Part shown: piece by piece, positions 15,865-54,856 of the stretch
How positions within the stretch are numbered: position 1 is the first letter of the stretch
Layout of the letters: the number at the start of each line of letters is the position of its first letter
Assembly (NCBI GenBank): GCA_965178125.1
Contig: OZ237757.1
Location: forward strand, 682,001 to 746,000
Direction: 5' to 3'
Length of the DNA: 64,000 nt
Origin: Bilabrum cf. latius
Taxonomy: Eukaryota
Made by a program: the position numbers and the translations under genes
The notes under the pieces: model-generated
What the model was told of the DNA's origin: nothing
What the model saw: the letters and a program-made list of their open reading frames with translations, nothing else
Database searches by the model: none

Positions 15865-18800
15865 ATGCCGAGACAGACCAGCAGCGTTCAGGCTTTGGCT
15901 TCCAATGCCTGGGCCTCGATGCTGCTCCCATTCGCTCTGTCAGCGATTCTTATTACTGCAGGAGTACTTATTCTTGATATACTATCTCAGCTATTTGGGG
16001 AGGCTGTGCTCTACAGGTCCAGGCATGTTATCAGCACAGAGTTGGCAGCCCCGTGGCCTCGGCGCATAGTAGTTAACGAGTCTGATTCTGGCACTGACAT
16101 ATTTCCCGAAGATCAGTACAAGCGCACGACTGCAGTGATTCAGGGTGCAATCGGAAGCGCCTGTTCCGCACTGATTGTGCTGGCAATTTCGGGGGGTCTT
16201 GCATTCGCTGCCTTGTGGTGTCGCGAAACTTGGCAACACTCAGCGACAACTCTGGACAATGATGCTGCCCAAAGCAGCCGTGAGCATGCATGTTGCTTTG
16301 GAATGCTCGAGGGGGCCTGCCGGACCCGAAGGTCGGTGCTCCTCCTGCTCATCACAATCCTGGCGGCGATGATGGCAGTCGAGGCGTCCTTCCAGTACAT
16401 CCCCAGAAATGCCGGCCCCGGCGGCGGAACGTTTGGCCCAGGTCCTCTCGTCATGTCATACGCGGGGGCCGTAGGCCTCGCCCGCGGTTCGTGGCATTAC
16501 TTATCGCGAGCAGTCTAGGGGGAGCCGTGGACGATCGGTGATGTCCGGTACTCTATCCCGCAGCTGAGCACAGTGTCGCCCGGCGTGTCGCTGACTGGGG
16601 CCGTGTTTGTCAGCACGGTGGTGATTTCCACGATGATCATCGGCTCGGCCAACGCCACGAGGCCCAGGGCAGAGATCCAGGCCAAGAGGAGCAGGCTGGT
16701 GACCATCATCACGTGCGTGGTGGTGGGATTCGCGGCAAACGCATTCGTGTCTGCCACCATTGGCTTCACGAACTTGGGAGCATCTACATCCTCCTACAAG
16801 AAGGGAACTGGCGCCATTCGTGACCTAGAGGCGCTTCGGAATGGCCTCTGGGCTCAGCATGGGTGGTCTACCGGGACCCAGTCGATGCCTGACAACACAC
16901 CCGGTTCGTACGGTCGGTATGAATCTCTGGATGTGCAGGCGCAGCCGCTGCTACTCGGGGCAGATGGTCAGCCGGTTTATTTTCTCGCGCTGCAGCAGCA
17001 CGCTGCCCTTGCTCTTGCTCCAAATAGCAGAGATAATGCCAGCGAAGCGTTGCTGAAAGCTGCAAGGGCGGGTGCAGTCACAGGTGCAAAGGCGGGCGGG
17101 CTCGCAAACACCGTGGCTAATTCGTCCGTGGTGGGCTCTTGCCTCATTCGAATGAGCTCGGCCGAGTCCTCTGTGGCCCTGACTGCCCTCGACTACGCCA
17201 GGGGCAAATTGGCTGCATCGGGCGGGAACACATCTGCTGCTGGGCTGGCCTTCCCACTCTCTGTCAGCGATGTGCTGGACGGGGCAAGCAACAGCCAGCC
17301 CAGCCTGTATGAAGAGAAACTGGAGGGCCTGACGCGATGGCTACCCGCTGGAATTGTGTTCATGTCTGCCGTGTACCTTGGATTCACTGGCTGCGGCTTC
17401 TGCTTGTTCGTGCTGACTCCAGCAGTTGGGCTCCGACGGGTGCTCGCCACATCCGATGCGAAATTTGGAAAGTGGGCGGTGGCTGCAAAGCTCCGGGGCA
17501 GCGATGAGCGGCACAGACCGACCAGGGTGGTACCTTCCGCGGCAGCGCCCGGCGGTAATCCCAGGGACGGATCAGACGAACACGGCTCAACTGCTGCTTC
17601 GGCTCGGCAAGGACCTCCAGAATGGCAGCTGGGTCGATCGGAAGCTGGCTGGGACTGGGTTGGGACGCCTATTGGAGTGAGGTGTGCTGCCTGCATCGGT
17701 AACCTATTAGTGTCTCGTGTGATCATGCTGCTAGCCGCGTGCTGCTGCTAGCCGTGCCGGCGTTGCGCTTGCGACACCTGCTGCACGGGCGATTGCTGCA
17801 ATTGTTGCAGTCCTACGGCCCCAAAGCGCCCGATGCAAAGCAACGGTCTTACAGAAGCGGATGGTACCAGGCCCACGTAGCATTCGATCGTACGTTCACT
17901 GCGTGAGTGCAGCAAAGGTGGTCAGCTACCCGCTGGATTGCGTGCGGGGCCAACCGGAAGGAGGTCTGCAGGCAGGGGATCTACACTCCGCAGGCATGAC
18001 ACCAGCGAGGAAATGCATTCCGAATGCGGCGGTGCCCTGACCTGCTCGGAGTCGGAGCACAAGCGCGAGAAACAATGGGCTTTGGCGGCATCTGACGCGT
18101 ACGCCTTCGGCAGGGCAGCTTGGGCGGCGCTGTCACCGGCTCTGGATGAGGGCACAGTGCCGTGCTGCGCGGGGTGGTGCGGTCACACACCGCGCGGGAA
18201 GAGTATGTGCGGCTCATGTCAAAGTTAGGCTGGGAACTCCGACCCAGGTGCGGCCTCAGACGTGTCATTGGTGGATCCTCAGGTGCGGGCAGCGGAGCTG
18301 ATGCTGGAAGAGGCTGCGCAGGGCTCAATCGAGAACCGTGCTGCAAAATCCAGCTCAAGCAGCTCATCGCATGCGTACTATAGCGGTAAGCCGGCATCTT
18401 AGTACCACCGTCAGTCGAGCCTCGGTGCCGCACTCGTGCGCTAGGTGCGAGCGCGGACCGCCCTGCTGGCAATCGCTCTAAAGTGCCTGACCACTGCCGC
18501 AATCCTGCACTTTATTGCTGTGAATATCGTGCAAGCGGCTCTACTAAGCAAACCAGACGCCATCTGCGAGTGCGCATACACTAGCATTGCTGGGATTCGT
18601 GGCTTTTTCCCCTGCCAAGACACGGCCCTCGAGGGCAAGCCCGTGAGTGAATTGCTGCAGGACGAGTGGCAGGACGCTGCGATCAGCTATGTTGTAGGAG
18701 ACCTAGTGTGGCGGTTTGTTTGGTTCGTCATCCGGGTCGCGGTGCTGGGCGCGCTCTATTTGTTCGCCGTGCAATCCGACGAGCTGGAGACTGCCGTGGC

Positions 18801-20162
18801 GCAGGCGGACAGACATGCAGCCGCATTGCGAGCCAGGCTGCGGTTCGTCTCTCACGAGTGCAGGGTGCCTCTGAACTCGGTGGTGCTCGGGCTGGAGTTT
18901 GCCAGCGAGGCTGCGATAGAGGCGGAGAGGGCGGCGGGAGGGATCCGCAGGCGGCTGGCAACTCGAGGCAGGGGTCTTGACAATGGTATTGGCATGGGTC
19001 GTTCTGGCTCTGCCGGCGGCTATGACGAGAGTTTTGATGATGCTAGCCGTCAGTAGCAAGCATCCATGGGTGAAAATCCAAGGGAAAACTCGACTGCGAA
19101 TAGCACCGCCGACCTGGACGCTGCATTAGCCACCCTGCGCGAGTCCATGCCCTCGCTTCAGGCAGCGGCGCAGTCGATGCAAGCCACGCTGGACGACGTG
19201 CTGAGCCTGGAGCAGATCGAGGCAGGGGCCATGCGGCTCCAAGTCAAGCCAGCCCGCATCGGGCCTGCCTTCCTGCAGTCGGTGGCTCAGAGGCTCCGCA
19301 CCCAGGCGGTGCACGCTGGCGTGCAGATGCGGTGGGTAGACCTGCGTGATCACCGCGGCGCGGGTGGGAGAGGGCCGGCCGGTGTGTCAGTGCTGGTGGA
19401 CCAGGGCAGACTGCAGGGCGCAATGATGACGATTGCATCGAATGCACTTCATTGGAGCACTGGGGATGATGACGGGTCCGAGAGTGGAAGCAAGGCCAGC
19501 CCCACTGTCACGCTGGGGTGCTCGAGTGCCCCGCCGCACCTGTGGACGGGAGAGGACTGGGCGCAAGCAGCGAGGGGATTAGGCGCTGATACCGCTGGAC
19601 GGCTGCTGCAAATTGTGACTGGCTCGTTCAATCGGTTGCAAAGTGATAGAGTCGGAAGCAGTCACCAAACGGACGTGCCAGTCCACGCGCCACGCCAATC
19701 TGACGCAATGGGAACCGGGTCAACAATGGGCGCAGCAGTTTCCGCACGTCTTGGCGATGATCACGAGGGCATGCCTGCTACTAGTAAGCCGAAGAAAGTC
19801 TCACAAGAGAAGCTAGCTAGCGAGTCAGTGCCTGCCGAGGGAGGTCGGAGGGCCGCTGACAGCCGAATGCCAAAGCAGCGCACTGGGTCCGATCCTGACG
19901 ATACTGCGGCAATGCAGATGATGCCCATGCATCGGGCCCACACCTTCAGAACTCAGGGTCCTGTAGCCGGACGGACAGGTCCACAAAACATGCGCCTATC
20001 CGGAGGCAAAGGCGGCTCTTCAATGGGCAAGCTCAGTGACGACGGTCACGCGGCTGTGACTGTCTTCGCCACGGATCTGGGCAACGATGTGGTGCATGAA
20101 CTGGTACTGCAGCAAAGCTAGCTTGAGTCGATACCCGCTCCTGGTGATGCTGCTGATGCTGC

Positions 20163-20221
<59 letters not shown>

Positions 20222-22209
20222 GCGCGACATCGCATCACACATCTACGGACCCTTCGCTTGCTCAACAGCCCAGGAGCTCCGACGTGTCAGGAACGCGTCG
20301 CGGTGTGGCGGTTGAGGTCGCCGTACGCAGAGGTGCCCCCTCACCCCAGACCCACCATGGGACTCCCTACCCCTGCTTCGGTTCGAACGTAAGCTTGGAC
20401 GGAGCGCCAGCTAAAGGTACAGGATTGCTAGGCACCAAGACAGTCAGAAGCAACGACAAGCATGGATTCGATCAAGAGGGGAGCGGCTGCATATTGAGGT
20501 AGCCAGAGGCCGTGTCCCAGCCCCAAACCTCCCGCTCCCACTGCGGGTCAATCGGCCTAGGCATTGCGCACCATTCCTCCTCTGCTGAGTCAGGCAGCAA
20601 CGCGCCTAATTCGCTCCATTCAACGGGTCGTCTGCACCAGATGACCAGCCATGGCTCGCGAGCCCAGGCAGCTGCAGGAACGAGCCACTCGATCTGGACC
20701 GCCAATCGCACCATGGATGCCACGGAGGCAGACGTGAGCGAGGCAATGGAGGCAGCACGCTTCGCGCGAGACGGTGCCTCTTCACATGACGATCCGGTAA
20801 CAGCAGGTGGGCAAAAGAAGCTCAGGGGCGTGTGCTGCGTTGATCCCACAGGACAGAGTGCCTACTAGCGCCTTGAGCGGGGCTTGGTACGGGCACACCA
20901 ACCTCACCGGCATACAAGCGGTACATCTGCTGCCAAGACTCGCGAGAGCACGGCCAGTGGGAGATCTCGTGATCATAGAAGCTCACATTCTGGCAGTAGA
21001 AACGTGTTGCCGTCAGACGGTGCGAGCGAGTCCGACGGTCAGGTCTTGGGAGCTGCGACCAATGCGCGTGCAGCTGGCACTGGTGCTAGCAATGCCGGTT
21101 CATCGGTGTCTGTCTGTCTCTGGGCGCTGGACGAGGGGCGCGGGATCGACCGGCAGGACTGGGGCGGGGTGTTCTCTGCTCTGGACGGACTGCACTCGGG
21201 GATCCTCACATCGGAGGGGCAGGGGTCGGGGCTTGGGCTGGCTGTGGCGGCGCAGGTGCTGCGGCTGCACGGGGGCTGCTGCGGGTTCAGCAGCTGTCCA
21301 GGCGCTGGCAGCGTGTTCTTCCTGTGGTTCAGGGCAGCTGTAGTGCACAGAGATGACACAGAACATGGCGAAATCTCTTCGGCAGACGAGGAGATCAGCG
21401 TCCCGAAATCGAGTGTGGGTCTATCGGGTCGTCTTGGCGCGCGGCAAGGCGAGGGGGAGGCGGACATGAGCAAGGCTGCAGAGGCCCGAAAGATGGAACG
21501 AGGAAGCGCTGCACTCGTCACATAGAAGTCCACGTAGAGCAGCCAGCCACATCACGGACGAGGCAGGAGACGAAGAGTTGTCAAGAGAAGGGACAAGAAG
21601 ATAGCGGGTGAGAATGACTAGAAATCCAGAGCCGGGGCAGGCGATAGTTGCCTAGCAGACGGTGTTGGCTCAACAGGGCAGAATGAAGCCGTGGGAGCTG
21701 GCGCTGCCGCAGGGGGTGTGCTTCGTGTTCCTGCAAGGACGCAAAGCGTACCAGACAGACCCACGGCCTCTGCTCGCACGGTGCTTGTGGTGGACGACAG
21801 CCGCTCCAACCGCGTGCTTCTGGCCTCGATCGTGAAGCGATGCATGCCGGCGGCATGGGAGGGCACTCGGGTGCTGCAGGCCAGCGACGGGGTGCATGCG
21901 CTGGAGGTGATTGAGCAGGAGATGGAGGAGAGGAGCGGGGCTGTTGCTGGTGAGGAGTGCCCAGTGCGGCTGGTGCTGCTGGATTTCTCCATGCCGCGGA
22001 TGTCAGGGCCGGAGATGGTGCGACGCATGAGGGCGGACAGGCGCGCGTCTGTGCGAGGCATCCCGGTGGTTGGAGTGACTGGGAATGCGCTGCCGGAGGA
22101 TGTGGAGCATTTCAAGGAGTGCGGGGCAGAGCGGGTGCTATTGAAGCCCGTGTCCGTGGCAGGAATCCGGAAGGTATTGCAGGACGTCGCTGTCAGGCAC
22201 TTCTGTTGA
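15865..22209 (+). CDS. Membrane-bound hybrid histidine kinase (HisKA + split HATPase_c + receiver), ~2114 aa
   Basis: Single frame across TAGs to TGA 22207-22209. Several TM segments, H-box RFVSHECRVPLNSV, N-box IASNALHW, G1 LDEGRGID, G2 GSGLGLAV, receiver VLVVDDS...LLDFSMPRMSG...LLKP. Confidence 0.88.
20143..20220 (+). repeat. (GCT)n/(GAT)n trinucleotide microsatellite encoding poly-Ala/poly-Asp within the histidine kinase
   Basis: Directly visible gatgctgctgct...gatgatgat run. Confidence 0.95.
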
Positions 22210-25600: not shown

Positions 25601-27253
25601 AGTCATGCCACTGACGGCTGGCTCTCCGGAGTCAACAAGACAGGCTACGAAGTCGAGGTCAACGGCACCATCCGCCGGGGCACCATGTCGCTGACGCTGT
25701 GCCCGGGCGAGAGCAGGCAGGCGGGCGCCGACATCTGCGTGTCTGTGTGGGACACCATGGGTATCATGGAGACAAGGCAGTCATTCGAGGTGCAGGCCGA
25801 GGTGCACCGGTCTCTACTACTGGACGAGCACACGGCCGTGATTTTCGAGAATGGGGCAGGCAGCTCTAGGGCATCAAGCTTGCTCGTTGGCGACGTGGCG
25901 AGCGGAAACATCACCGAGATTGATTGCGAAGAGCACAGCATGCCGGAGGTCAACGAGAACTCGATCAACCGGCTGTTCGGCGGCAGGGCCGCGTGCTGGT
26001 CTCCCTCGAACGGTCTAAGCCAGGGGTTCGGCAACGTGGGGAAAATCGTATGCTGGTTCAAGGGGAGCCAGGAATGCACCGCGTATGCCTTCAATGCAAT
26101 TCAAGGTCAGCGGCTGGTCCGTCCATTTGCTGAGATACCCCGACCCGTGCAGTTTGACCCTACCATTGCCGTCGCCGCCGTGGCCACCAACGAGTTGCAT
26201 GGGGAGGAGCTGCACGTGATGGCGGTGATTCAGCCAACGCCCTCACCATCACCGACCCCGAGCCCCACTGCCAGTCCCTCTTCCAGCCCGAGCACCAGCC
26301 CCAGCCCGAGCGTCAGCGCCAGCCCGAGCACCAGCCCCAGCCCAAGCGTCAGCGCCAGCCCGAGCACCAGCCCCAGCCCAAGCGTCAGCGCCAGCCCGAG
26401 CACTAGCCCCAGCCCGAGCGTCAGCGCCAGCCCGAGCACCAGCCCGAGCCCAAGCGTCAGCGCCAGCCCGAGCACCAGCCCGAGCCCAAGCGTCAGCGCA
26501 AGCCCGAGCACCAGCCCGAACCCGAGCACCAGCGCCAGCCTAAGCCCGGACCCACCAGCTGCAGCCGATCCATCCCCAGTTCCAGCTCGCCGAGGCCGAG
26601 GCAAGCTCGCTCCCGTCGCCACAAACGAGGGAGACAACGAGCAGAGCGATGCCCAGCTGTGCCAGGGCCCCGCGGATGCAGCCGCCTCCAGCCAGACCCA
26701 GGCACCCAGGGCCAACATTCTTCACAACGAGATCAAGATCACCGGCCTGGATCCAATGGACGCCAGCTGCGGTGACGCCCTGCTGCTCGTGGGCAATCTG
26801 ACGGCTGCTGCTGGGACGGACGCGGGCGACGTCGTGGTGTGGTTCGAACCTGATGGCAATGGCGGGTCCACGCTCGTGGTGCAGACGCCCGTGGAGAACG
26901 AAGATGAGGCCGGCCTCGTGATGCAGGCCTACGAGGATATCTTGCTGTCGCCAGTGCTGGGAAGCACGCTAGGCTCGCAGGCGACCTTCGATCCGACCGA
27001 CGAGGACGCTGCCTACACCGTCTCGAACCCGTACGTGCCTTCCACTGACGGAGATGATGAGGTTGACTTCCCAGTGGCGATCGTTGCGGGCGTGGCGGGC
27101 TTCGTGGCTCTTGTGGGCCTGCTCGTGTGCCTGTACTGCGCTGGGTGCTGCTCCAAAAAGCGGGCCGAGGAGGACGACGAGGGCGCCTCGAAGGACGCTA
27201 AGAAAAAGCTTGACAGCGTGAAAACGGCTCAGATCAAGGCCCAGGCGGTGTGA
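22670..27253 (+). CDS. Paralog of the 1783-5754 surface protein (~1527 aa): ELWxxDGT-like repeats, SPST repeat stalk, TM
   Basis: ORFs 22613, 23273, 23639, 24518 and 25523 share one frame and are joined by TAG. Shared motifs (FYFDG, GRELAIWD, LHGEELHV, RRGRGK after the stalk, TM followed by CCSKK); ends AQAV-TGA. Start codon inferred. Confidence 0.75.
26282..26540 (+). repeat. 36-bp coding tandem repeat (SPSTSPSPSVSA)n, mucin-like stalk
   Basis: Repeated agcccgagcaccagccccagcccaagcgtcagcgcc units, about 7 copies. Confidence 0.9.
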
Positions 27254-27603: not shown

Positions 27604-29076
27604 TCAGGATGATCCAGAAACGCCTATACCCCGCCGTGGTGGGGTTGTGGCGCAACTGAAACTCCTGGAGCCTCGGGCTCGATACCCATAGGAGGGCTTC
27701 CCGACCACCGGCATGCCAGCTCCTGTCCGATTCCGGCTCTGTGCAAACTGTTGCCAGTTCAACATCCACCGGAGGCCTCGCGCGTTCTCCACCACAGGCA
27801 AGACGACAGCTCCATGAGCTCGGCTGGTAGAAGTTAATAGTTTAGCCGAGTCATGGGCACCATCTGCTGCGCAGGAGGTGTCGCGATGACCATTGAGTGC
27901 CGGACTCCACCAGCCCATCACACCCATTTCCCCATTCCCGTCTCCATCGGGCCATGGGGGTGGAGGACGCCCCGACCTTCCTGCCCCTTCCCCGTTCTGC
28001 TGGTCTGACCCGCCTCCTGGTGGCCTGCCCCAGGCAGCGCCCTCCGTCCCTTCCTCTCCTGGAGGCCTGCCCCAGGCAGCGCCCTCCGTCCCTTCCTCTC
28101 CTGGAGGCCTGCCCCAGGCAGCGCCCTCCGTCCCTTCCTCTCCTAGAGGCCTGCCCCAGGTAGCGCCCTCCGTCCCTTCCTCTCCTGGTGGCCTGCCCCA
28201 GGTAGCGCCCTCCGTCCCTTCCTCTCCTGGAGGCCTGCCCCAGGCAGCGCCCTCCGTCCCTTCCTCTCCTAGAGGCCTGCCCCAGGCAGCGCCCTCCGTC
28301 CCTTCCTCTCCTGGTGGCCTGCCCCAGGCAGCGCCCTCCGTGCCTTCCTCTCCTGGAGGCCTGCCCCAGGTAGCGCCCTCCGTCCCTTCCTCTCCTGGAG
28401 GCCTGCCCCACACAGCGCCCTCCGTCCCTTCCTCTCCTGGAGGCCTGCCCCAGGTAGCGCCCTCCGTCCCTTCCTCTCCTGGTGGCCTGCCCCAGGCAGC
28501 GCCCTCCGTCCCTTCCTCTCCTGGAGGCCTGCCCCAGGCAGCGCCCTCCGTCCCTTCCTCTCCTAGAGGCCTGCCCCAGGCAGCGCCCTCCGTCCCTTCC
28601 TCTCCTGGTGGCCTGCCCCAGGTAGCGCCCTCCGTCCCTTCCTCTCCTGGAGGCCTGCCCCAGGCAGCGCCCTCCGTCCCTTCCTCTCCTGGTGGCCTGC
28701 CCCAGGTAGCGCCCTCCGTCCCTTCCTCTCCTGGAGGCCTGCCCCAGGCAGTGCCCTCCGTCCCTTCCTCTCCTGGAGGCCTGCCCCAGGCAGCGCCCTC
28801 CGTCCCTTCCTCTCCTGGAGGCCTGCCCCACACAGCGCCCTCCGTCCCTTCCTCTCCTGGAGGCCTGCCCCAGGCAGCGCCCTCCGTCCCTTCCTCTCCT
28901 GGTGGCCTGCCCCAGGCAGTGCCCTCCGTCCCTTCCTCTCCTGGAGGCCTGCCCCACACAGCGCCCTCCGTCCCTTCCTCTCCTGGAGGCCTGCCCCAGG
29001 TAGCGCCCTCCGTCCCTTCCTCTCCTGGAGGCCTGCCCCAGGCAGCGCCCTCCGTCCCTTCCTCTACTGGAGGCAT
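27604..29076 (-). CDS. Possible repeat protein (PPGEEGTEGAAWGR)n, 490 aa
   Basis: ATG-to-TGA ORF spanning the array. Other frames are also open, so coding status is uncertain. Confidence 0.3.
   Translation of the reverse strand: MPPVEEGTEGAAWGRPPGEEGTEGATWGRPPGEEGTEGAVWGRPPGEEGTEGTAWGRPPGEEGTEGAAWGRPPGEEGTEGAVWGRPPGEEGTEGAAWGRPPGEEGTEGTAWGRPPGEEGTEGATWGRPPGEEGTEGAAWGRPPGEEGTEGATWGRPPGEEGTEGAAWGRPLGEEGTEGAAWGRPPGEEGTEGAAWGRPPGEEGTEGATWGRPPGEEGTEGAVWGRPPGEEGTEGATWGRPPGEEGTEGAAWGRPPGEEGTEGAAWGRPLGEEGTEGAAWGRPPGEEGTEGATWGRPPGEEGTEGATWGRPLGEEGTEGAAWGRPPGEEGTEGAAWGRPPGEEGTEGAAWGRPPGGGSDQQNGEGAGRSGRPPPPWPDGDGNGEMGVMGWWSPALNGHRDTSCAADGAHDSAKLLTSTSRAHGAVVLPVVENARGLRWMLNWQQFAQSRNRTGAGMPVVGKPSYGYRARGSRSFSCATTPPRRGIGVSGSS
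28015..29072. repeat. 42-bp tandem repeat (minisatellite), ~25 copies
   Basis: Unit ggcctgccccaggcagcgccctccgtcccttcctctcctgga with a few recurrent variants. Confidence 0.95.
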
Positions 29077-29974
29077 GGAAATCTGAAATCTGATTTAGGG
29101 TCAAGCATAACCCAACAATCGATCCAGATCCGGATCCGGTGAGCTGCTTCTCGTTCTCTCAACACGCAACAGTCACTATTTTTCTCGCTCAGATATTACC
29201 ACCCGGTACACTTGCCGTGGCGCAGCAGAAGCACAGTTCATACTTTTCTAGAATCTGTTCGTCTGTTGCCTTGACATATCAGAGATCTGCGGGGCTGTAC
29301 AAGACTAGTTTGAAGGATGGGATCTGGCGAGTCGAAAGTCTCGGCCACGGAATCCGATGTAGCGGCATCATCCATGAAACCTGTCGCATCTGGAACCGAT
29401 TCCCTCGCTCCCCGTGCTCCAGCTGCTAACATCCGATCTCTTGGTGCCAAACTGTCGCTCGAGGATCTGGCTCGCATGATAAGTAGACTTCGTCCAGTCG
29501 AGTCATCTGATCGCGATGAGGATTCGTTTCAGATGCACTTCGGATTTAGCGCCAGTGACAAGAAGCGACTGACCGCCCGTTTGGCAAGAGGTGCGCAGGG
29601 GCCGAGTGTGCCGCCTGGAGGCTTTCAAGCGCTTCCGGACAAGCAGCTCGTGGCCATTCCAGACTCAGCAGAGCGCCAGGCAGCAGTTCCGTTGCAAACA
29701 GCAGCTTTTCTGATACAGTGCAAAGCCTTGCATGGGCCAGTGCAATCAGTTGCTGCTATGGCGATGGTCGAGACTGTTCTCGAGGATCTCGAGTTCGCCA
29801 AGCAGATGCAGGCCGCCAGGATGCAGGCCCTGGTGAACGTGCGAGTCTCCAATGTTGAGAAAAACAACCTACATTTAAGCTTGACCCCAAAGCAAGTTGC
29901 GGGGTGCAGCTGGTGGGGCAAGGTCGCGCGCGGAGACAAGACCCAGGTTGTGCTGGACGTGAGGCTTGGCCGCG

Positions 29975-30075
29975 TGTTATCCGCCAAAATGTGTGTAGTT
30001 TTTATATAAGTAAACTCTATTTCTACTATATAGTAGAAATAGAGTTATCATAACTCCACATTTTGGCGGATAACA
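29975..30075. other. 101-nt terminal nested hairpin (mirrored at 54756-54856)
   Basis: 19-bp arms TGTTATCCGCCAAAATGTG / CACATTTTGGCGGATAACA enclose a perfect 34-bp palindrome (30013-30046). Confidence 0.95.
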
Positions 30076-31535
30076 TAAGAGGTCAATATTAACCACTTCA
30101 CAACATCTTAAGCCGTAGTCCTTCATAATGTCCTTCACTTGAACATAATAATTTAATAGCTATTTATTCATATATCTACCTAATTTAATACCTTCGCGCC
30201 GTTAATGTCTATCTGTTAGACCTTTACTTTACTTAATCTGTTGAGTGAATCCCTAGCCTAAGTCTTAGGATATGCCCGCCCGAAATTGCGGAAATATATA
30301 GTCATTTAAGAATATATGTTCGCAATTCTGGGCGCGTAGGTGTATTGAGTTTTATATTATGATTTGGTTTTAAGTATCAATTGACATTTACCACTTTAGA
30401 AAATAACTAAATAAATACTTAAAGAGATTGACAGAAGTATTAAAGTCTTTTTAATACTTCCAATGAAAAATTTAAATTAATAAATAAAACTAAACTAATA
30501 TATCAACTTAATTTATCTCTTTTTTTATTACTTGTCAATCTATACTTAAATAATTGAATATTTAAATATAACTAGAAGGAGATATTAATCACTTTATAAA
30601 GTCTTTTATATGTCATCTCTTCAAAACTTCAAATATAAGGGTATCCCCTTAAAAATACATCCTTTAATCTATCGCCCGAAATTGCGGTAATATTATAGCT
30701 ATTCAAGATATATTTCTGCAATTCTGGGCGCGTAGGTGTATTGATTTTTATTTTTCATAATTCTTTAAATATGTTAAAGTCCTTTGTTTGAGTATATGAT
30801 ATAAAGGAATACAAAGCGGGATAACTTAAAAATGATAAATGTTTTGACGATGACTTTAAAATGACTCAATGAACTGGTTTATGTCAAGTGTATTACTTTG
30901 AAATGATTAATCACTAGATTAAATGGAAAATATAGGATAATAAAATATGGTATAGTATAATACTAGCGCCCGAAATTGCGGTAATATATTAGGATATTAA
31001 GATATATTGTCGCAATTCTGGGCGCGTAGGTGTATTGAGTTTTATATTTTGTTAATTTTGACATAGTTATCTTATAGAGGTGTAATTTTGTAATAAAGAT
31101 ATTTCTAGTATGTGCTATATTAAATGTCCAGAAATGACGGCCCGAAATTGCGGAAATATATAAGTATTCTAGAAATTATGTCCGCAATTCTGGGCGCTTA
31201 GGTGTCTTCAATAATTAATAATCAACTACTTCTTTATTTTGATTAATTTTTTTGACTTACCGTTCATTTTATTGACCACTTAACGGGATATCACAAAAAG
31301 ACTTAACCACTTGACGAGATATTTTAAAATAACTAATAATAAATATGACCGCCCCAAATTGTATCTCCAGATATGACCGCCCCAAATTGTATCTCCAGAT
31401 ATGACCGCCCCAAATTGTATCTCCAGATATGACCGCCCCAAATTGCGGAAATATATAAGTATCAAGAAAATTATGTTTGCAATTCTGGGCGCTCACCCGT
31501 ATTCAATTTTACATATTCACTAAGTCATACCACTT
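29975..31535 (+). repeat. Left terminal inverted repeat (~1.56 kb)
   Basis: Reverse complement of 53235-54856 apart from tandem-repeat copy number and one swapped spacer. Confidence 0.95.
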
Positions 31536-32499
31536 GAAGTGGTCCATTTGATCTTGTGTTCATATTTAGAATGTCCTTTAACTGGTTTCAATGTATTGAG
31601 CACTTCTTCTAACTAGTCCTTAACATATGATTTAGTCTAATGATATGTCTTAGTTGTCTTCACCTATTTAATAACTGAACTCTGCTGCGAATCAATGAGT
31701 GCTCCTTCTACATGCCCAATGGCCAAATCACGGACCCGCTCCCACAGTTGGGGCAGTTCCATAAAAAAAACAAACAGGACGTCCCTGCGCCCGTCCCGCG
31801 CCCTCTCCCCCCCACGAGGGACAGTCCGCCCCGAATCGACTGGTTCTCCTCAGTCGCGTCTCGCGCATGCTATACCACACTCGCCACAAATGTACACGCT
31901 ACCCCAATCCTTGCATCGTCTGCGCCTCCAGGCTCGCTCCGATGCCTCCCCTTCTAGTCCTGCCCCATTCTGATCTGCTGTCTCCCTACGCACCCGTACG
32001 TCTCAGCCTTCGCCAGAAATCCTACTGCCTTGTGGTCTGGCCCCACTCGGCTGCCTCCGCTGCCCCTCCCTCCCCATGGGCCTCCACGCTCCCGAGCCCT
32101 ACTGGCTTGCTCGGGCCTGTCCGTGCCCCTTCGTCGTCCCCGCCACGCGTCTGGTTAACCGCGCTCGGGGCATCCCGATCCTCCCCTTTCCTCCGTTCAT
32201 CTTGGAATCCCCCTCTCCGTCGCCTCCCCCGGTGCCACCCGACCCCTTGGTGGGCCGCCGCCCGTCCACCCTGTCACCTCCGCCAAGCTCCCCCGTCTGC
32301 TCCTGTCCCCCTCTCACCTGGCCCCCTCGCTGTCACCTCCCGCCGTTGTTGTCCTCCACCTGCACGTGCGCTGCTGCTGTACCCTCCCCGTCGGAGCCCC
32401 CATCGCTGTCTCACAGCCCTCAATCCCAATGTCTGATGACACAGATAATAATTTACAAGTCTTACCGACAATATACTAAGTTAATAAATCTTGTATCAT
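31517..32499 (-). pseudogene. Small viral gene (90 aa) disrupted by the GC-rich insertion
   Basis: Deleting 710 nt between the two CCCAAT(G) copies restores MIQDLLT(Q)YIVGKTCKLLSVSSDIGHVEGALIDSQQSS...GMT(Q)-TGA. Confidence 0.7.
31721..32424. mobile_element. ~700-bp GC/C-rich non-coding insertion flanked by a CCCAAT(G) direct repeat
   Basis: Host-like GC content inside AT-rich viral DNA; CCCAATG at 31715-31721 and 32425-32431; no TIR or convincing ORF. Confidence 0.8.
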
Positions 32500-33880: not shown

Positions 33881-33966
33881 ACAACTAGAAGAAATAACAG
33901 AAGACAATATGTTAAAAAATCGTTTAATTAACGCCAAAATTTATATCTACTATATATATAGTAAAT

Positions 33967-35622
33967 ATGACTAATAAAGGCAAGACATACACTAGAGGTA
34001 AAATATCTTACACGTATGGTGATGAACCGACAAAAAATCAAAAAGATAGTGATAATTTAGAAGCCACTATTAAGGGACTACTTGATAAAGGATTTGAAGA
34101 GGTACCAACTACCAAAGCAAGTATTAAAAAAATACCTTTATATTCTTATGTATCTTATGTAAGTAATATCAAGGGAAAGCCACTATTTAGAAGAGGTGGG
34201 GTAATTAACTCAATATAGAAGGATGGAGACTATTTCACTTTATATAACTTAGTGAGTCGTGTTCATTTTAGCGTTCAATAGTCTAACCTAGTTCGTCTTT
34301 TTTATAAGATGACTAAAGCTTAGACGAAAAAACTTAATAAACCAACCGGTAAATTAATTGAAGTAGAAGATGAGGACGACAAAGACAAATTTAATTATAA
34401 ACCAATATTAAAGAAACTATATTATGAAGAAGGTAATGTAGTCAGTCGTGATGCGTTATATGACCTAGCTAGACAAAAAGATAAACGTATTAAAAGACGA
34501 CAAGTAGAAAAGTGGTTAAATAACTAGATGCTCCACCAATTGACCAAAAAACGACCTAAACAGTCAGCAGTAAGTTCTTTTGTACCTACTAAGCCTTTCT
34601 CAATTTACGCATTGGACTTAATAGACATGCAAAAGTATTCAGACACTAATGACGGCTATAATTGGATATTAAATATAATGGATATATTCACAAAATACCT
34701 ATGGAGTATTTCATTAAAAGATAAGACATTAGTTAATATAATTCGTGAGATGAAGAAACTATTTAAGAAACCTAATTGGAGAAAACCGACTGTTATGTTA
34801 AGTGATAATGAGTTTAATAAAGAGGCATATATTAAATTTATGAATGACAATGACATAAAACCACTATTCACCATCGCAGGAAATCCATAGTCTAATGGTG
34901 CAGTTGAAAGACTTAACAGGACTATAAAAGAATAGATTAGAAAAGACTTTGCTATAAAGAATGACAGTGATGGTGTTTGGCATACGTCATTATAGAGACT
35001 AGTAAGAGCTTATAATAAGAGAAAACACAACACTATAGGAATGTCTCCAATAGAAGCAATGAAACCTGAAAATTTAGAAGTAGTTAGATCTAGAATTGAA
35101 AATAAGAAATTATCAAATAATTTTGACGGGAATGATAAAGATCTTAATGTAGGGGATAGAGTTAGAGTATTACTTGAGAAGAACAAGTTTAAAGGAAATT
35201 TATTTAATTGGTCTAGAGAAGTCTTCACTGTTAGATAGAAGACCAAACCAAGAAATCCTAAGTAGAGGATTAAATATAAAGTAATGGACAAAGAGGGAGA
35301 ACCTCTTACTGGATTCTTTAATGCTTCACAGTTATAGAAAATAGACAATGTAGAACACGAAGATAAGGTAAATGATGACATAGACAAGGAAAGTGAAGAG
35401 CCTGAAATTGATAATGTTGAAGGTTTAGAAGTAGAACCAGACACAATAGAGAAGTTTTTAGATAAAAGACAAAATAAAGATAGACTTATTGAATACTTAG
35501 TCAAATATAAGGGATATTCTAATAAGTTTAATGAATGGATTACCCGTAAGAAATTAGAATAGGATTATGGGAAAGACCAAATACGACCACTTGCGAAAGA
35601 CTATTCTGATAGATAGAGATAA
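33967..35622 (+). CDS. Retroviral-type (rve) DDE integrase with C-terminal chromodomain, 551 aa
   Basis: One frame with about 12 in-frame TAGs. VEKWLNN(Q), ALDLIDM (D), LSDNEF (D), NP(Q)SNGAVERLNRTIK (E), YNKRKHNTIGMSP, VGDRVRV, NWSREVF; chromodomain IEKFLDKR..EYLVKYKGY..NEW. Confidence 0.93.
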
Positions 35623-37171: not shown

Positions 37172-37486
37172 TCACCGTGTTGATTTTTCCACACGTTTTA
37201 ACTCATTCATAATTTCTAAATCAAGTAAGCCATTAATAATACGAAAATCTTTGTAATCTTGCGCCATCTAAAACATTCCTTCATATTTAGGCAACATAGC
37301 CATTTTAAGACCTAGGATAGACTTAATATCTTCGTAGGTAATAATCTAGTCTTTTTCTACTTCTTTTAGCTCTTCAACTTCACAAATACGAAGGTCCTTT
37401 CCATCAAAAAATTGATCAAAAGCTGTCTTTACCTTTTTTAATATATTGTTCAAACTTTTTATGTTATAAATATTATTAAAGTTCAT
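37172..37486 (-). CDS. Hypothetical viral protein (104 aa)
   Basis: ATG to TGA with two TAGs; preceded by CGCCAAAAAATATTTACTATATATATAG. Confidence 0.6.
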
Positions 37487-37642
37487 TTCTATATATATAT
37501 AGTAAATATTTTTTGGCGGAATAATTAAACTTAGGATCTAACCGCCCGAAATTGCGGAAATATTATAGCTATTCAAGATATATTTGTGCAATTCTGGGCG
37601 CGTAGGCGTATTGACTTTTGTATTATTTTGTATTTATTTGTA

Positions 37643-41250: not shown

Positions 41251-42069
41251 ATGGTTAAATTAACAAAGTAGTAGCTAAAGTATTATTCACGATTTGATAA
41301 TAAGATATTCAAGTCTTTTAAAATAAATAGAAGTGATATTTATTTAAATGGTTCATATTCATTTACTCATAATATGCTTTCACTTTGGGCTGGAGACATA
41401 GACCTATACTCTCCCGTTAAATTGTCTGATGTCAATAGTGTTATAAATGAATTAAAGACCTTAAGAGGTAGTAGATTAATACATATTTATAACGTTGAAT
41501 ATGATGATAATGGCGTCTCTTTAGATACATTTCTTGATACTAATAGACCTAAAATATTAAAATCTTTAAAATAGTAGAATAATCCTATGATATTCGTTGA
41601 AAGTTGGGTCTATACTGGATATATTGAAGAGGTTAGTATATTATATGATATTGGAGGTAAGATATTGAAAATGAAGCCTAAACAAGTAGCAGATAGGATG
41701 ATAGATGACATAAAAGACTTACAAAAAGAACGAAAATATTTCAAGATATTAAAAAGACTAGATGTTATATATGACGAATTAGGGCAAAAGAAGAAACAGG
41801 AAGAGATTGAACAACTTATAAAGAATCCCGATGTAGGCTTTCTTTACTTGACTATTACAAGATTAAAAAGTTTATTACTTCCAACAGTTCCATTTAAATT
41901 AAAAAATAGAGTTATTGATAGACTTAAGAATGATGTACGTAAATTAGGACTTATTAAACCAGTATATCAATACTTTAATACGTTCAATAGTAAAGATGTA
42001 AGTATTATAATTAAATATTTAGAAGACTAGCTCAATAAAAGGGTCGTTAAATTAGTTTCACATAATTGA
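41251..42069 (+). CDS. Pol-beta-superfamily nucleotidyltransferase-like protein (272 aa)
   Basis: YLNGSY-x10-GDIDLY matches the hG[GS]x9-13Dh[DE]h signature; frame joins 41374 and 41587 via TAGs; ends TGA. Confidence 0.55.
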
Positions 42070-42930: not shown

Positions 42931-43998
42931 ATGTCATTATCATACGATGAAATACCAAATAGTCATTTAGTTGCTTTAAGAGAATACAAGCACAAGAAGA
43001 GGAACAAAAGCGTCTTTTTTAGTGAAGATGTAGGGGAAAAAGTCATAACTCCAGAAGATATAAGTGATGATTTACTTGAAGAGTATTATGGAAAGAGAGC
43101 AATTAAATATGAGAAGAATAAAAAAGCATTACGTGAAGAGATGTGTAAGCTAGTGAATGGAAATAAAAAACTAGTTAGAAAGACTAACGAGTTAAGAATA
43201 GATGATAAGAGTTAGTTTGAAATAGTCCCATTCTTTGATGATGAGACCAAAAGACAAATACACTATTTAAGTGGTTAGGCTGGTGCTGGTAAGTCTTATA
43301 TTGCTAAGTCTTTACTCAAGTATTATCATATGTTCATTCCAAAGAAGAGGGTTTTAGTCATTACACCAGTACAGGAAACAAATCCAACTTATTTAAAATA
43401 TGGTAATTTTATTGATATTGATAAATTAGTAGCAGTAGATAGAAACGATAGTTATGATGACTTAATGAGGAAATACAAAGAAGAAAAGATATTCTTTAGG
43501 TAGGAAAAGAAGTCATTAGAACCTCATGAATTAATTAAAAGAGAGATAGAGATAGAAAGAATGAAACCAACAAGTAAAGACAAGACAAAGGCATCATTTA
43601 CCACTACTCCATTGTATGAAGAATGGGCAAAATAGGGTCCTTCTGTGGTGGTATTTGATGATTATGAAGCCTTAAACGGTGATAAAAAGTAGAGAGCGTT
43701 ATTCTTAATTAAGCGTATAGGTGAAGTTGGAAGACATAGCTCAACAAATATGATAGTTATAAGTCATTTAACGAATGATTATGCGAATACTAGGTCAATA
43801 GTCATGGAAAGTCATAATATTATTTTATTTAAGAGAAATCTATGGAAATTTAGCAAATATTTAATGAAAGCATATTTAGGATTTGATGCAAGTCTTATAA
43901 ATCGTGTTTATAAATTGTTTGGAGAAGGTAATAGATGGCTATGTATTAATAAGACTTATAATTTTATCACTTGTCCTAAATAGATGTTCGTATATTAA
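42931..43998 (+). CDS. FtsK-HerA/A32-like DNA packaging ATPase (355 aa)
   Basis: Walker A LSG(Q)AGAGKS, Walker B VVVFDDYE, GRH..MIVISH, TRSIVMES; first gene of the ATPase-protease-penton-MCP block. Confidence 0.9.
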
Positions 43999-44017: not shown

Positions 44018-44566
44018 ATGGATATAACCACTGCATTAAGTCCTGAAGAGGTACAAAGACTATACTTTACATTTACAAAGTAGCATATACCAGTTATAAT
44101 GTATGAAGAAATAAGTGATACTAATAACATCAGACAATTTCTAGATGAAAATCCTTTATTTGTCCTTTATTATCCTAACTTAGTAGAAGGAGCAACAATG
44201 AGCGGTCATTATACTGCGGTCATATTTAACAAATCAAAGAATACTCTTTATTTTTGGGATAGTTATGGTCAATTACCTGATACTCATATTCCAGTTGTAG
44301 GTGGAGTCATAGACCCATAGAAGCTATATGATAGAAGTAGTCTTCTAATAGATCACGTATTAGATGCTGGTATTAATGTTGACTATTCAAATCAAAAGAA
44401 TCAATTAATATCAAATAACTCTGCCACATGCGGGAGGTGGTGTGTGCTCAGGATATTATTCCATCACTTGACGAATGATTAGTTTAATAGTCAATTAAAG
44501 AAGGCTTTTAAAAAGTATGGAGGAGGACTAGATAATGATGAACTTATTACTTTGATAATTAGTTAA
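44018..44566 (+). CDS. Adenain/Ulp1-like maturation cysteine protease (182 aa)
   Basis: Catalytic SGHYTA (H), YFWDSYG (D), Q....SATCGRW (Q, C). Confidence 0.9.
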
Positions 44567-44926
44567 TATGACATATACCATAAATTTTTAGATATTGAAA
44601 ATTGATATCTATAAGGTGGCCAAATTAAAAAGACTAAAATATAAAAATGAATACGGGTAAGCGCCCAGAATTGCGGAAATATATCTTAATATCCTAATAT
44701 ATTATCGCAATTTGGGGCGCTGGTATTATACTATATCTTAAGATACTAAATTTTTAAAATTTCGGAATATTGGATTTTTTCAATGAGTCAAATAATTAAT
44801 AAAAACTTTTTTAAAAAGTCAATACGGGTACGCGCCCAGAATTGCGGAAATATATCTTAAATAGCTATAATATTACCGCAATTTGGGGCATTAGACAAGA
44901 CTTATTTTCTTGATAAATGTTATAGA

Positions 44927-45853
44927 ATGGTAGAGATTCAAGAACCAGATATCTTTTATATTAACTCATAGGATACTATAACATCTATTAATACTAATAG
45001 ACCAGTATCAATACATGAACAGCGTCAAGGTAATATCTTGACAAATTCACAAAACTACTTATTATCACTTGACCGATGGACTCTTAAATGTCGTATTCCT
45101 TTATTTGTAGCAAGTAAAGAAGTAAAGAATAGCGATAATTAGTCAATTTATAAGATGTCGTTTGTGAAGAAGAGTGATGGAACTACTTACACTCGTAATA
45201 TTGTCTTAACTAAGCCGTTATATTATAGTCTTAAGACCCTATCTAATGAATTTAATAATACTCTTAGTGATTTATGTGGAGATGCTAGTATTCCAACTGA
45301 TAGTATAGTATTTGAATATCACGGTAAGACTAAAACATTTAGTTTCACCCGTTTAGCCGCTTTTACAAGTGCGTGGACTTTAAGTTTTAACTTTCCTTTA
45401 TTCTCTATCTTTGAGACATTTGAATATGACGATGAAGGTAAAGACATCAAGAGTGATACTTATATAAATCTATTAGATGGATATAATGAATAGAGTGCTT
45501 CTACCTTAGATTAGTTTCCTACTATGGAGTATATTCAAATTATTAGTCCATCACTTCCAATACTTCCAGAATTTACGCCATCATATAAAAGTACATCTAG
45601 TACAGAGATACAAAGTGAAAATATCTTAAGTGATTTCAAGATAGACAATACAACAGGAACGAGTTTTATTAAAATAAACTTTAGTAGTGGAGGAAATCAT
45701 AGATGGCAATAGTTCTATAGATCAGCATTTAATAGTTATAGTATAGTACCGTATTTTAGAGATACTTTTGGAAACTTATACGAAATACCCTTTACTTTTG
45801 GACAAGGACTTAATATAAAAGCTCTATTTAAAAGTAAAAAGTTAATAACTTAA
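44927..45853 (+). CDS. Minor capsid (penton) protein (308 aa)
   Basis: Located just before the MCP; N-terminal EQRQGNILTNSQNYLLSLDRW and C-terminal FRDTFGNLY...IKALFKSK resemble virophage pentons. Confidence 0.75.
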
Positions 45854-45895: not shown

Positions 45896-47782
45896 ATGTC
45901 TGATATGGATAATGTACCTGTAGCAGCACAAAGCAAAGTCGTAGATGACGTCTCAGAACTACCAGTAACTCAAATAGCTGACGAAAAACTCAACTTTGTG
46001 GGTGATAGTCAAGCTATTACTCTAGGAACTACCCTTGGATACTCTTCCAAGTTTCAAAATCACTACGAACCAGATGGTGGTAACTCTAGCGCAACTAATG
46101 CATTTAGAAGTAATTATACTTTCGTAGTGCCATCAAATCAAGGAATGACTGACAGTAATCCCCGTCTAAGAGTTTCATTTGACGTATACATCTATGATAG
46201 TTAGAACAATGGAGCAGTAGCTCAAACTGATATCGTCAATAAGGTAGCCCCTTCTACATTTATGGTAAATTCAATGATCACAAGTTCCACAGTTAAAATG
46301 GGAGACTTATCTCGTAGTTCATCACCTTATCAATTAGTCAATTTAATAGCTAGAAGTCTTGACCGTGCCACTCTAGCACAAATAAGTCCTGTCTTTTAGG
46401 CTGATAACACTTGGGAATTTAATACTGCCGCAAATGGTCTTGCTAAGTCTGTCCTTCAATGGGGTGTAAATGATGATAGTATTATGGAAGCTCGCGGTCC
46501 TGGTAAGAATTACCGCGCAACACTTGAAAAAGTGGATGCTAATACTCCAATACCTAATAATAATGTAACACCAACTCAAGACTATGTCAAATTACATATT
46601 GAAATCTCTGAAGCACTTCTTGCACGTCCTTTCCAATATATGATGGGTGGTAATGCTAGACCTTTTGTTGATCATCCACAATTAAATGTTAATTTACAAA
46701 TGAGAAATAACTTAATTGATAAGATGTTTAATACTTCAAGTGATTGGAATGGAGACTATGCTTTTGCTTTATCCGATTGCTAGATCCATTTTGATGTCTT
46801 TACTTATAATACTCATCTTAACTTCTTGAAGAAAGTACCTAAACAAATATTCTACAACTCTGTTGACTTTGAACTACATGAAGAGCCTAAACTTGATAAT
46901 CCTATCACTACTAAAGGTGTCCATACTTTTAATAATTATCAACTTTAGACTTGCCCTTCTTGGTTTGCTGTGTGCTTAGTTGATTCTCAATATGGAGAAG
47001 CTAGTGGTACACCTCATAGAACACTTGCCATTAACAATATTAAAGTACAACTTAGGTCTTAGGGTTCTATTTTAGGAGAACTTACACAAGACGATATCTT
47101 TAGACTTAGTGAAAGAAATGGATCAAATAGTGAGTATGCTTCTTTTACTAACTTAGATGTAACTGTAGGAGGTGCTTCTAAAGTATACGGATCTAATGGC
47201 TGGCTCTTATTTAGACTTAGTGATTTAAATACTCCTGAAACTATTCAAAGCAACAGTGCTGACCCTATTAGTATTCGTGTTCAAGTAGCCTATGACGAAC
47301 CCCCAACCGCTGCTATGTCTCAAGGATATAAAGCTCAATTATTCTGTGCCTATGACAAGATTATCGTGAATACTAGAGGTGCCGCTATTGAATGGCGTGA
47401 AGATAGTGCTTCTGTTGACCCTGAGAAAGTGGCTAAACCTTCTAATTATACATTTTCTAATATGAACTACTCTAAGAACGTATTAGGTGGAAGACGTCGT
47501 AAAGTGATGCAATTCTTTAAGAGAGCCTTTAACAAAGCTAAAGACTTAGGACGTAAAGTGGTAGACTTTGGAAAGAAAGCTAAAGCTAAATTTGATAAAG
47601 TGAAACCAGCTCTTCGTAAAGCAAGACAAGCAGTAAGTGAATACTTACCCGATGAAGTGAATGACCTAGCTGAACGTGTTGGAGCAGGTCTTTTAACTAG
47701 TGGTGGAAGTCTTTTGACCAGTGGAGGTAAGAAATTAACTAAGGCTCAACTTATGAAACTTAGAAAGTAGCTCAATATGTGA
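45896..47782 (+). CDS. Major capsid protein, virophage-type double jelly-roll (628 aa) with basic C-terminal extension
   Basis: Longest beta-rich ORF of the block, in one frame through TAGs. Size and gene order match virophage MCPs; VLGG-RRRK and TSGG di-glycine sites in the tail. Confidence 0.8.
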
Positions 47783-53234: not shown

Positions 53235-54856
53235 AAGTGGTATGACTTAGTGAATATGTAAAATTGAATACGGGTGAGCGCCCAGAATTGCAAACATAAT
53301 TTTCTTGATACTTATATATTTCCGCAATTTGGGGCGGTCATATCTGGAGATACAATTTGGGGCGGTCATATTTATTATTAGTTATTTTAAAATATCTCGT
53401 CAAGTGGTTAAGTCTTTTTGTGATATCCCGTTAAGTGGTCAATAAAATGAACGGTAAGTCAAAAAAATTAATCAAAATAAAGAAGTAGTTGATTATTAAT
53501 TATTGAAGACACCTAAGCGCCCAGAATTGCGACAATATATCTTAATATCCTAATATATTACCGCAATTTCGGGCCGTCATTTCTGGACATTTAATATAGC
53601 ACATACTAGAAATATCTTTATTACAAAATTACACCTCTATAAGATAACTATGTCAAAATTAACAAAATATAAAACTCAATACACCTACGCGCCCAGAATT
53701 GCGACAATATATCTTAATATCCTAATATATTACCGCAATTTCGGGCGCTAGTATTATACTATACCATATTTAATTATCCTATATTTTCCATTTAATCTAG
53801 TGATTAATCATTTCAAAGTAATACACTTGACATAAACCAGTTCATTGAGTCATTTTAAAGTCATCGTCAAAACATTTATCATTTTTAAGTTATCGTCAAA
53901 ATATTTATCATTTTAAAGTCATCGTCAAAACATTTATCATTTTTAAGTTATCGTCAAAATATTTATCATTTTAAAGTCATCGTCAAAATATTTATCATTT
54001 TTAAGTTATCCCGTTTTGTATTCCTTTATATCATATACTCAAACAAAGGACTTTAACATATTTAAAGAATTATGAAAAATAAAACTCAATACACCTACGC
54101 GCCCAGAATTGCGAAAATATATCTTGAATAGCTATAATATTACCGCAATTTCGGGCGATAGATTAAAGGATGTATTTTTAAGGGGATACCCTTATATTTG
54201 AAGTTTTGAAGAGATGACATATAAAAGACTTTATAAAGTGATTAATATCTCCTTCTAGTTATATTTAAATATTCAATTATTTAAGTATAGATTGACAAGT
54301 AATAAAAAAAGAGATAAATTAAGTTGATATATTAGTTTAGTTTTATTTATTAATTTAAATTTTTCATTGGAAGTATTAAAAAAGACTTTAATACTTCTGT
54401 CAATCTCTTTAAGTATTTATTTAGTTATTTTCTAAAGTGGTAAATGTCAATTGATACTTAAAACCAAATCATAATATAAAACTCAATACACCTACGCGCC
54501 CAGAATTGCGAACATATATTCTTAAATGACTATATATTTCCGCAATTTCGGGCGGGCATATCCTAAGACTTAGGCTAGGGATTCACTCAACAGATTAAGT
54601 AAAGTAAAGGTCTAACAGATAGACATTAACGGCGCGAAGGTATTAAATTAGGTAGATATATGAATAAATAGCTATTAAATTATTATGTTCAAGTGAAGGA
54701 CATTATGAAGGACTACGGCTTAAGATGTTGTGAAGTGGTTAATATTGACCTCTTATGTTATCCGCCAAAATGTGGAGTTATGATAACTCTATTTCTACTA
54801 TATAGTAGAAATAGAGTTTACTTATATAAAAACTACACACATTTTGGCGGATAACA
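53235..54856 (-). repeat. Right terminal inverted repeat (~1.62 kb)
   Basis: Reverse complement of 29975-31535. Confidence 0.95.

Follow-up and report, generated by a model that had tools for sequence, protein, structure and literature searches.

Flip and flop isomers of a nested 101-nt palindrome at the ends of a predicted endogenous virophage, and a possible hairpin telomere

We analysed a stretch of 64,000 nucleotides (hereafter the window) and found in it an element of 24,882 bp with ~30% GC, lying inside DNA of ~60% GC. The element is bounded by terminal inverted repeats and by a 5-bp target-site duplication, and the host reading frame left of the insertion stays open to the right of it, into a helicase-like gene. 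Given that duplication and the resumption of the host frame past the site, the ends of the element are exact. Judging from its genes, the element is an endogenous virophage integrated in a protist genome. The host DNA (~60% GC) has long open frames, and the gene interrupted by the virus (29317–58778) is superfamily 1 helicase-like (IGHMBP2-like, E 2e-37). Two long host genes at 15865–22209 (+) and 58953–63452 (-) are inverted relative to each other and share blocks that are 78–98% identical, which makes them an inverted gene duplication on either side of the insertion. The host DNA also has tandem arrays, of 42-bp units and of 18/36-bp units, at 27888–29195 and 26211–26581, respectively. The scan of the 22 predicted proteins of the element gave the following assignments:

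33967–35622 (+): predicted rve integrase with a chromodomain, 551 aa with TAG read as Gln, residues D217, D280 and E314 present (Pfam rve, E 8.8e-08; Chromo, E 4e-07)
42931–43998 (+): predicted packaging ATPase (P-loop/AAA families, E 1e-05)
44018–44566 (+): cysteine protease-like protein (Peptidase_C57, E 0.004, below the cut-off)
44927–45853 (+): probable penton, a 308-aa ORF named from its position between the protease and capsid genes, with no match to a penton family
45896–47782 (+): predicted virophage major capsid protein, 628 aa (PF22031 MCP_V20_C, E 3.2e-07, 30.4 bits against a cut-off of 27)
49891–52689 (-): predicted fusion protein of 932 aa, with a primase-polymerase and a UL9-like superfamily 2 origin-binding helicase (Prim-Pol, E 8.9e-14)

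By profile and by modelled fold, the replication protein is a putative fusion of a primase with an origin-binding helicase similar to herpes UL9. Its profile, made of 11 homologues, matched solved origin-binding proteins (E 6.5e-05), and the fold search with an alignment-based model (pLDDT 74) returned as top match the origin-binding protein of HSV-1 on oriS (E 2.3e-13 across 735 columns, with a TM-score of only ~0.3). The match to CyRepA1 (E 2e-33) was under the curated cut-off of that family. There was no match to pPolB or a terminal protein among the 22 proteins, and no unassigned ORF exceeds 480 aa, in line with the original prediction that this virus lacks pPolB; the element pairs a non-pPolB replication gene with an rve integrase. 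The check for nucleases, recombinases and resolvases was repeated on 16 of the 22 proteins and then on 17 viral ORFs: neither a tyrosine recombinase nor an HUH nuclease or nickase matched in any of these sets. Likewise, no Holliday-junction resolvase or protelomerase was recognised in the element, either in the same scans or in two atlas look-ups of small ORFs, which gave no usable match.

The standard code breaks the ORFs of the element, while reading TAG as Gln makes them whole. Decay of the ORFs, which are short under the standard code, was rejected because they are intact once TAG is Gln. Two invariant helicase glutamines are encoded by TAG codons, and the host ORFs also lengthen with TAG as sense. 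By these reading frames, TAG is a sense codon in host and virus, most likely for Gln, with TAA and TGA as stops; if the virophage is adapted to such a code, its helper virus should tolerate the code as well. The element also contains a 272-aa ORF (41251–42069, +) that had no family match in the scans and carries a GS...DxD pattern resembling that of nucleotidyltransferases. A GC-rich (58–74%) insert of ~740 bp (~31690–32430) just inside the left repeat, apparently within a small gene ending at 31517, resembles host or transposon DNA. A dispersed imperfect hairpin consisting of GCCCAGAATTGCG, ~28 nt and CCGCAATTTGGGGC was represented by 34 matched half-sites in intergenic positions between 30278 and 54553 (e.g. 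44834–44889); it occurs about five times per terminal repeat and is terminator- or polyadenylation-like.

The outermost bases of both terminal inverted repeats are hairpins of 101 nt. The features of the ends, read from the sequence and, for the repeats and the right hairpin, from sequence comparison, are:

29970–29974 (unstranded): left copy of the target-site duplication, 5 bp, with letters identical to 54857–54861
29975–31535 (+): left terminal inverted repeat, 1,561 bp, its initial 473 nt identical to the right repeat
29975–29993 (+): arm A, the outer 19 bp, which starts with TG and contains the CGCCAAAA motif
29994–30012 (+): B, the 19-nt unpaired or mismatched side of the hairpin and the marker of the isomer; its reverse complement is joined to A' and the inner repeat in runs X2 and X6 (see below)
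30013–30046 (unstranded): P, a perfect 34-bp AT-rich palindrome forming the hairpin tip, with the CTACTATATA motif on both strands
30047–30056 (+): C, the 10-nt mismatched side of the hairpin
30057–30075 (+): arm A', the exact inverted copy of A, ending in CA; the proposed integrase nick would fall at its 3' end
53235–54856 (-): right terminal inverted repeat, 1,622 bp
54756–54856 (-): right 101-nt hairpin, the same isomer as the left one in the register of the repeat
54857–54861 (unstranded): right copy of the target-site duplication, matching 29970–29974

The 101 nt at 29975–30075 thus read A + B + P + C + A' (19 bp, 19 nt, 34 bp, 10 nt and 19 bp), an imperfect palindrome whose layout had been described correctly in the original prediction: the 19-bp terminal arm recurs inverted at 30057–30075 as the exact reverse complement of A, the perfect 34-bp palindrome with asymmetric flanks is read off the sequence at 30013–30046, and the reverse complement of the matching structure at 54756–54856 is identical to the left hairpin across 101 of 101 nt. 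The window contains the arm 19-mer at four places only, all of them in the two hairpins, and no further hairpin with a perfect arm of at least 14 bp within 200 nt. The 101 nt fold with -32.2 kcal/mol (z = -13.3), and none of 200 shuffles folded equally well. In Markov simulations of the 24.9-kb element, the longest perfect arm obtained by chance was 15 bp, and arms of at least 17 bp appeared in 0 of 200. The features described for elements of Halocafeteria seosinensis, i.e. a palindrome within a terminal repeat adjoining a target duplication, are present here.

Two motifs of the hairpin were also found in front of genes. The CGCCAAAA motif has 9 copies in the element, 4 in the hairpin arms and 5 located ~35 nt upstream of start codons (0.35 expected), and the C[TC]ACTATATA motif also has 9 copies, 4 in P of the hairpins and 5 directly upstream of start codons (0.43 expected); the motifs were chosen by eye, and three of the five promoters are near-duplicates of each other. 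The motif scan gave these promoter-like modules:

33925–33969 (+): example module, CGCCAAAA followed by 13–15 nt and C[CT]ACTATATATATAG directly before ATG
37484–37530 (-), 47930, 48495 and 49438: further promoter-like modules

Both halves of the module recur in the hairpin, where they face the tip with a spacing of 41 and 32 nt, against 13–15 nt in the promoters. Poxvirus resolution sites double as promoters adjoining the hairpin, as described in PMC8956199. The possible parallel between the hairpin motifs and the promoter-type resolution site of poxviruses is an analogy worth testing and no result in itself.

We found fourteen public runs, with no RNA run among those listed, and compared four of them, from three studies, with 29500–30700: X1 and X6 (both of sample S1), X2 (possibly the window's own sample) and X7. 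The run data are assembled contigs, which lose rare variants, and the matches listed comprise 31 of the 145 pieces and, for loose ends, 21 of 30 rows. Among the matches listed, the flop link, in which the reverse complement of B is followed by A' and the inner repeat, was present in three of the four runs (X1, X2 and X6), representing two studies. In X2 and X6, respectively, 10 and 14 loose letters before 30057 were the exact reverse complement of B, and X1 had a contig with 11 loose letters before 29975 that are the reverse complement of 30076–30086, again among the matches listed. The flip link was the minority in sample S1, where it accounted for 11.3 of a depth of 30.6 in X1 and, in X6, for 3.1 of 9.8; the remaining depth, ~19.5 in X1 (derived from bin means) and ~6.7 in X6, is consistent with the flop link. 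The flop share was therefore ~64% and ~68% in the two libraries of S1, about two thirds of the ends. At least three contigs of X1, at least one of X6 and at least one of X7 (an unbroken flop junction of 715 nt) continued from C-A' into foreign DNA past 30075, and four foreign flanks taken from junction contigs had no match within the 64-kb window. The comparison of other copies for flip and flop isomers, which the original prediction had put forward as its check, thus recovered both isomers at integrated ends in public contigs, the signature expected of hairpin telomeres or of resolved concatemer junctions.

A 59-nt contig corresponding to 30017–30075 was observed in X1, X2 and X6, and 41-nt links together with a break at 30057 were observed in X1. 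We simulated four end models with 31-letter words, a length that agrees with the 30-nt overlaps seen, and only one of the four, the model of integrated flip and flop ends, reproduced the pattern. The simulations of flip ends only, of flip ends with junctions, and of flip ends with ends cut at the inner copy failed to give the observed breaks. The ratio of hairpin-arm depth to inner-repeat depth was 0.95–1.03 in X1, X2 and X6, which indicates that each repeat has a single whole hairpin and that truncated ends and head-to-head junctions are few. These three runs gave no sign of closed hairpins or of such junctions; by depth, the junctions would amount to ~5% or fewer, since they would pull the ratio towards 0.5. 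Such an absence is expected without a helper virus, and the three runs show no sign of replication. Separately, X7 covers the host flank and the hairpin without the inner repeat, with no contig joining across, a pattern that solo hairpins persisting once the virus body is lost could conceivably produce, and its small word share of 0.13 would fit the GC-rich insert (~31690–32430) alone. In X2, the terminal-repeat contig had ~22x the depth of the host flank contig, which suggests many copies, contig depth being no copy number.

The left junction contig of the window was unbroken through A and 8 nt of B in both X2 and X7, and was flip both times. Another junction, at 29978, is without the initial 3 viral bases and was flip in both X6 and X7, which come from two studies. 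Because these junction contigs run unbroken into one isomer that is kept between runs, the isomer state looks set at integration; its constancy was observed at two sites, in two runs apiece. These data bear on the reading in which the isomers arise only afterwards, by inversion of a chromosomal cruciform or through fold-back chimeras in the library, and would say nothing about viral replication. The hairpin is indeed very stable (-32.2 kcal/mol), and very stable hairpins cause template switching. Accidental annealing is also named as an alternative origin of palindromes in the text of bioRxiv 10.64898/2026.07.28.741278. Later inversion or an artefact would, however, split the junction contigs at the arm, while the contigs continue unbroken into a single isomer; moreover, the isomer of either site is the same in both runs in which it was seen, and the flop share agrees between the S1 libraries (~64% and ~68%). 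We regard this origin of the isomers as extremely improbable.

The window copy carries one and the same isomer at both ends, which independent resolution of the two ends allows and a circle with a single junction does not. A unit-length circle with one palindromic junction, at which the integrase would cut both CA sites 101 nt apart and repair would then duplicate the junction at both ends, has the merit of using both CA copies and of needing no resolvase, and a retroviral integrase, that of HIV-1, can make internal cuts where a circle has a palindromic junction (PMC1905944). Once its junction is opened with a stagger, the circle should nevertheless leave one flip and one flop end in each provirus and a 1:1 proportion overall, against the identical isomers of the window copy and the ~1:2 of S1. 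Gene conversion between the repeats could hide the one-flip-one-flop pattern, and the circle, taken together, seems very unlikely to be the free form of the genome.

The original prediction had two parts on what the hairpin is for. The first, hairpin telomeres or resolved concatemer junctions, gains from the presence of flip and flop isomers; the second, that the two CA-ending copies of the attachment site give alternative integration ends, does not stand. The inner copy is inverted, so that its CA points to the viral core, away from the host, and a cut there in the provirus would remove the hairpin without yielding a shorter viral end. Host DNA joined at 30057 or at 30076 was absent from the 21 of 30 rows of loose ends listed. 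Alternative ends were rejected on this geometry, on the ratios of arm to inner depth and on the simulation of ends cut at the inner copy. They are also not needed, given that the folded end has a single A/A' duplex, which unfolding doubles in the provirus.

We also searched related environmental sequences. The related primase-helicases came from at least 141 loci (61 viral loci plus the best 80 of 196 from metagenomes); most of these are fragments or belong to virus types of another kind, and their ends told us very little. Integrase matches were found in 4 of the 141 loci, and the ATPase and the protease, which co-occur, in 10 and 9, respectively. A terminal arm of at least 12 bp was present in 2 of 143 loci, one of which (L143) is a cut point, so one true contig end with a palindrome remains. 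In L051 (13109–13206), a 26-kb environmental virus contig ends in a perfect 98-nt palindrome, 180 nt past the primase-helicase gene; this palindrome may represent a hairpin end or a fold-back of the assembly. Long internal hairpins with TTTTTGGC/GCCAAAA motifs were seen in related viruses (L067:16517–16675, L038:8257–8356, L022:13070–13148 and L110:10534–10670). The ends of two further related records showed no hairpin, viral contigs contained no exact copy of the 19-bp end, and a search of viral contigs for relatives of the integrase by its own patterns gave 0 of 45 candidate stretches. The capsid protein had 3 matches only, one of them itself.

We propose that the 101 nt are the unfolded form of a hairpin telomere, which would invert in the course of replication and be cut open at CA by the integrase, and we consider the chances of this model evenly balanced. 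The extrachromosomal virus would be a linear duplex whose strands are joined at each end by the folded 101 nt, with A paired to A', B and C bulging out and P as the tip. The primase/UL9-like helicase, together with a polymerase of the helper or the host, would copy through the hairpin and produce head-to-head junctions, and resolution of these would give the two complementary isomers at random; the simplest agent would be a Holliday-junction resolvase of the helper giant virus, acting in a poxvirus-like manner. The rve integrase would then nick the base of the 19-bp stem, after CA, and join the 3'-OH to host DNA with a 5-bp stagger. Repair of the gap by the host would unfold and copy the hairpin, leaving a proviral end with the attachment arm twice and one isomer frozen. 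On reactivation, a nick at the host-side CA may turn the end into a self-priming fold-back and allow excision. The end structure, the target duplication, the gene content, both isomers at integrated ends and one hairpin per terminal repeat are the observations that enter this model directly. To our knowledge, no integrase has been described that acts on a closed hairpin while the genome lies beyond CA. It counts against all hairpin models that the free form was not seen in the contigs and that no resolving enzyme was identified in the element.

The same isomers could be produced by parvovirus-like terminal resolution, in which open, extended palindromic ends self-prime by folding back, a nick falls on the core side of arm A, the hairpin is copied and inverted in each round, and the integrase uses a blunt CA end, the usual substrate of rve integrases and to that extent a good fit. 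This would yield the same flip and flop ends in all four combinations, with a single hairpin in each repeat, and it is near the model drawn in the text of bioRxiv 10.64898/2026.07.28.741278. It requires, however, a site-specific nickase of HUH type, none of which is among the 22 proteins, and the nick of the integrase would seem to have the wrong polarity for regenerating the hairpin; we hold it to be unlikely.

The resemblance of the replication protein fold to the origin-binding protein of HSV-1 favours another reading, in which an ordinary linear end would carry an origin like oriS or a double site for the integrase. The UL9-like protein would bind inverted boxes around an AT-rich spacer, the primase would start synthesis, and isomers would be occasional products of virus replication, made when templates are switched or the 19-bp arms recombine, with no hairpin step that is obligatory. 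The oriS itself has inverted boxes around an AT-rich spacer and is able to form a hairpin (as described in PMC12543377), and in EMALE04, according to the text of PMC10945749, new versions of the primase/helicase accompany new terminal repeats. Such an origin leaves unexplained that the palindrome ends exactly at the terminal base and that the isomer shares are as even as ~1:2, and it is not exclusive, since a hairpin telomere can serve as an origin; we find this reading decidedly unlikely. That replication passes through the hairpin, in the closed-telomere and the parvovirus-like readings jointly, is probable. The most specific form of the closed-telomere model is a dsDNA virus that integrates and has flip-flop telomeres with covalent closure, and whose retroviral-type integrase inserts the genome by nicking the hairpin base, so that telomere, attachment site, primase/UL9-like origin and promoter-type resolution site would be one 101-nt element; this is a serious possibility that falls somewhat short of an even chance. 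If it is true, a provirus is a fossil record of the isomer that was integrated.

Perfect palindromes cannot reveal inversion, and the imperfect one described here can and does. At the level of sequence, the isomers favour hairpin-type replication among virophages and polinton-like viruses that lack a protein-primed polymerase, and they argue against protein priming and against the circle with a single junction. The feature is real, and terminal palindromes as a kind have recently been noticed; new here are a palindrome with its own orientation marker and the predicted flip-flop.

Among known systems, the termini of parvoviruses and AAV are terminal palindromes whose inner asymmetric part is flip or flop, ending at a fixed base beside the unique sequence of the repeat. 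The hairpin shares with these rolling-hairpin termini the asymmetric inner part in flip and flop forms and the fixed end base; unlike them, no HUH Rep was found in the element, which has a predicted double jelly-roll capsid and a primase-helicase instead. With HSV-1 oriS and UL9 (as described in PMC12543377) it shares inverted boxes around an AT-rich centre and a UL9-like superfamily 2 helicase. However, oriS is internal while the hairpin is terminal, and the helicase here is fused to a primase-polymerase; the likeness seen is one of layout and fold.

The element resembles mavirus and the EMALEs of Cafeteria burkhardae, as these are described in PMC8547959 and 10.1101/068312, in being a low-GC, ~20-kb integrated virophage with an rve integrase, terminal repeats of 0.2–2.3 kb, short target duplications and an ATPase-protease-penton-capsid module. 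According to the same texts, low-GC EMALEs carry pPolB, unlike the element (22 proteins), and mid-GC EMALEs (types 5–8), which lack pPolB, have a tyrosine recombinase beside a long primase-helicase, whereas the element has the primase-helicase and no match to a recombinase. The element also differs from mavirus and EMALEs in reading TAG as Gln. The texts of the EMALE, EMALE04, mavirus and Gezel-14T papers make no mention of a hairpin, and those of the EMALE and mavirus papers none of a palindrome either. We found no report of end isomers in virophages or polintons in a literature search that lay mostly outside subscription papers; flip-flop is mentioned for giant-virus genomes in PMC11788076.

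The closest parallel in the end structure is found in Halocafeteria seosinensis, where palindromes lie within terminal repeats adjoining target duplications in virophage subtypes 1, 2, 5 and 6, as well as in subtype 4 of the PLVs (bioRxiv 10.64898/2026.07.28.741278). In its text, the preprint ties these palindromes to non-pPolB replication genes and rve integrases, proposes hairpin priming and calls for tests. The element has the same combination of a palindrome in the terminal repeat by the target duplication, a non-pPolB replication gene and an rve integrase. The palindrome described here is imperfect and nested, which makes its orientation readable, and both isomers were found; the main text of the preprint does not mention flip, isomer, inversion or resolution, and figures or supplements may bear on this comparison.

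In poxvirus telomeres, as described in PMC8956199, an incompletely paired, AT-rich hairpin of ~100 nt lies in an inverted terminal repeat, exists in two inverted complementary forms and has promoter-like sequence facing the tip, all of which are found here; flip-and-flop hairpin ends are also stated for Asfarviridae and Phycodnaviridae in PMC11788076. Poxviruses, by the same description, are non-integrating viruses with a resolvase of their own (A22), while the hairpin of the element is known only unfolded in the provirus, with the TG...CA integrase end as its base. The hairpin would work like an end of poxvirus or parvovirus type but belongs to neither system.
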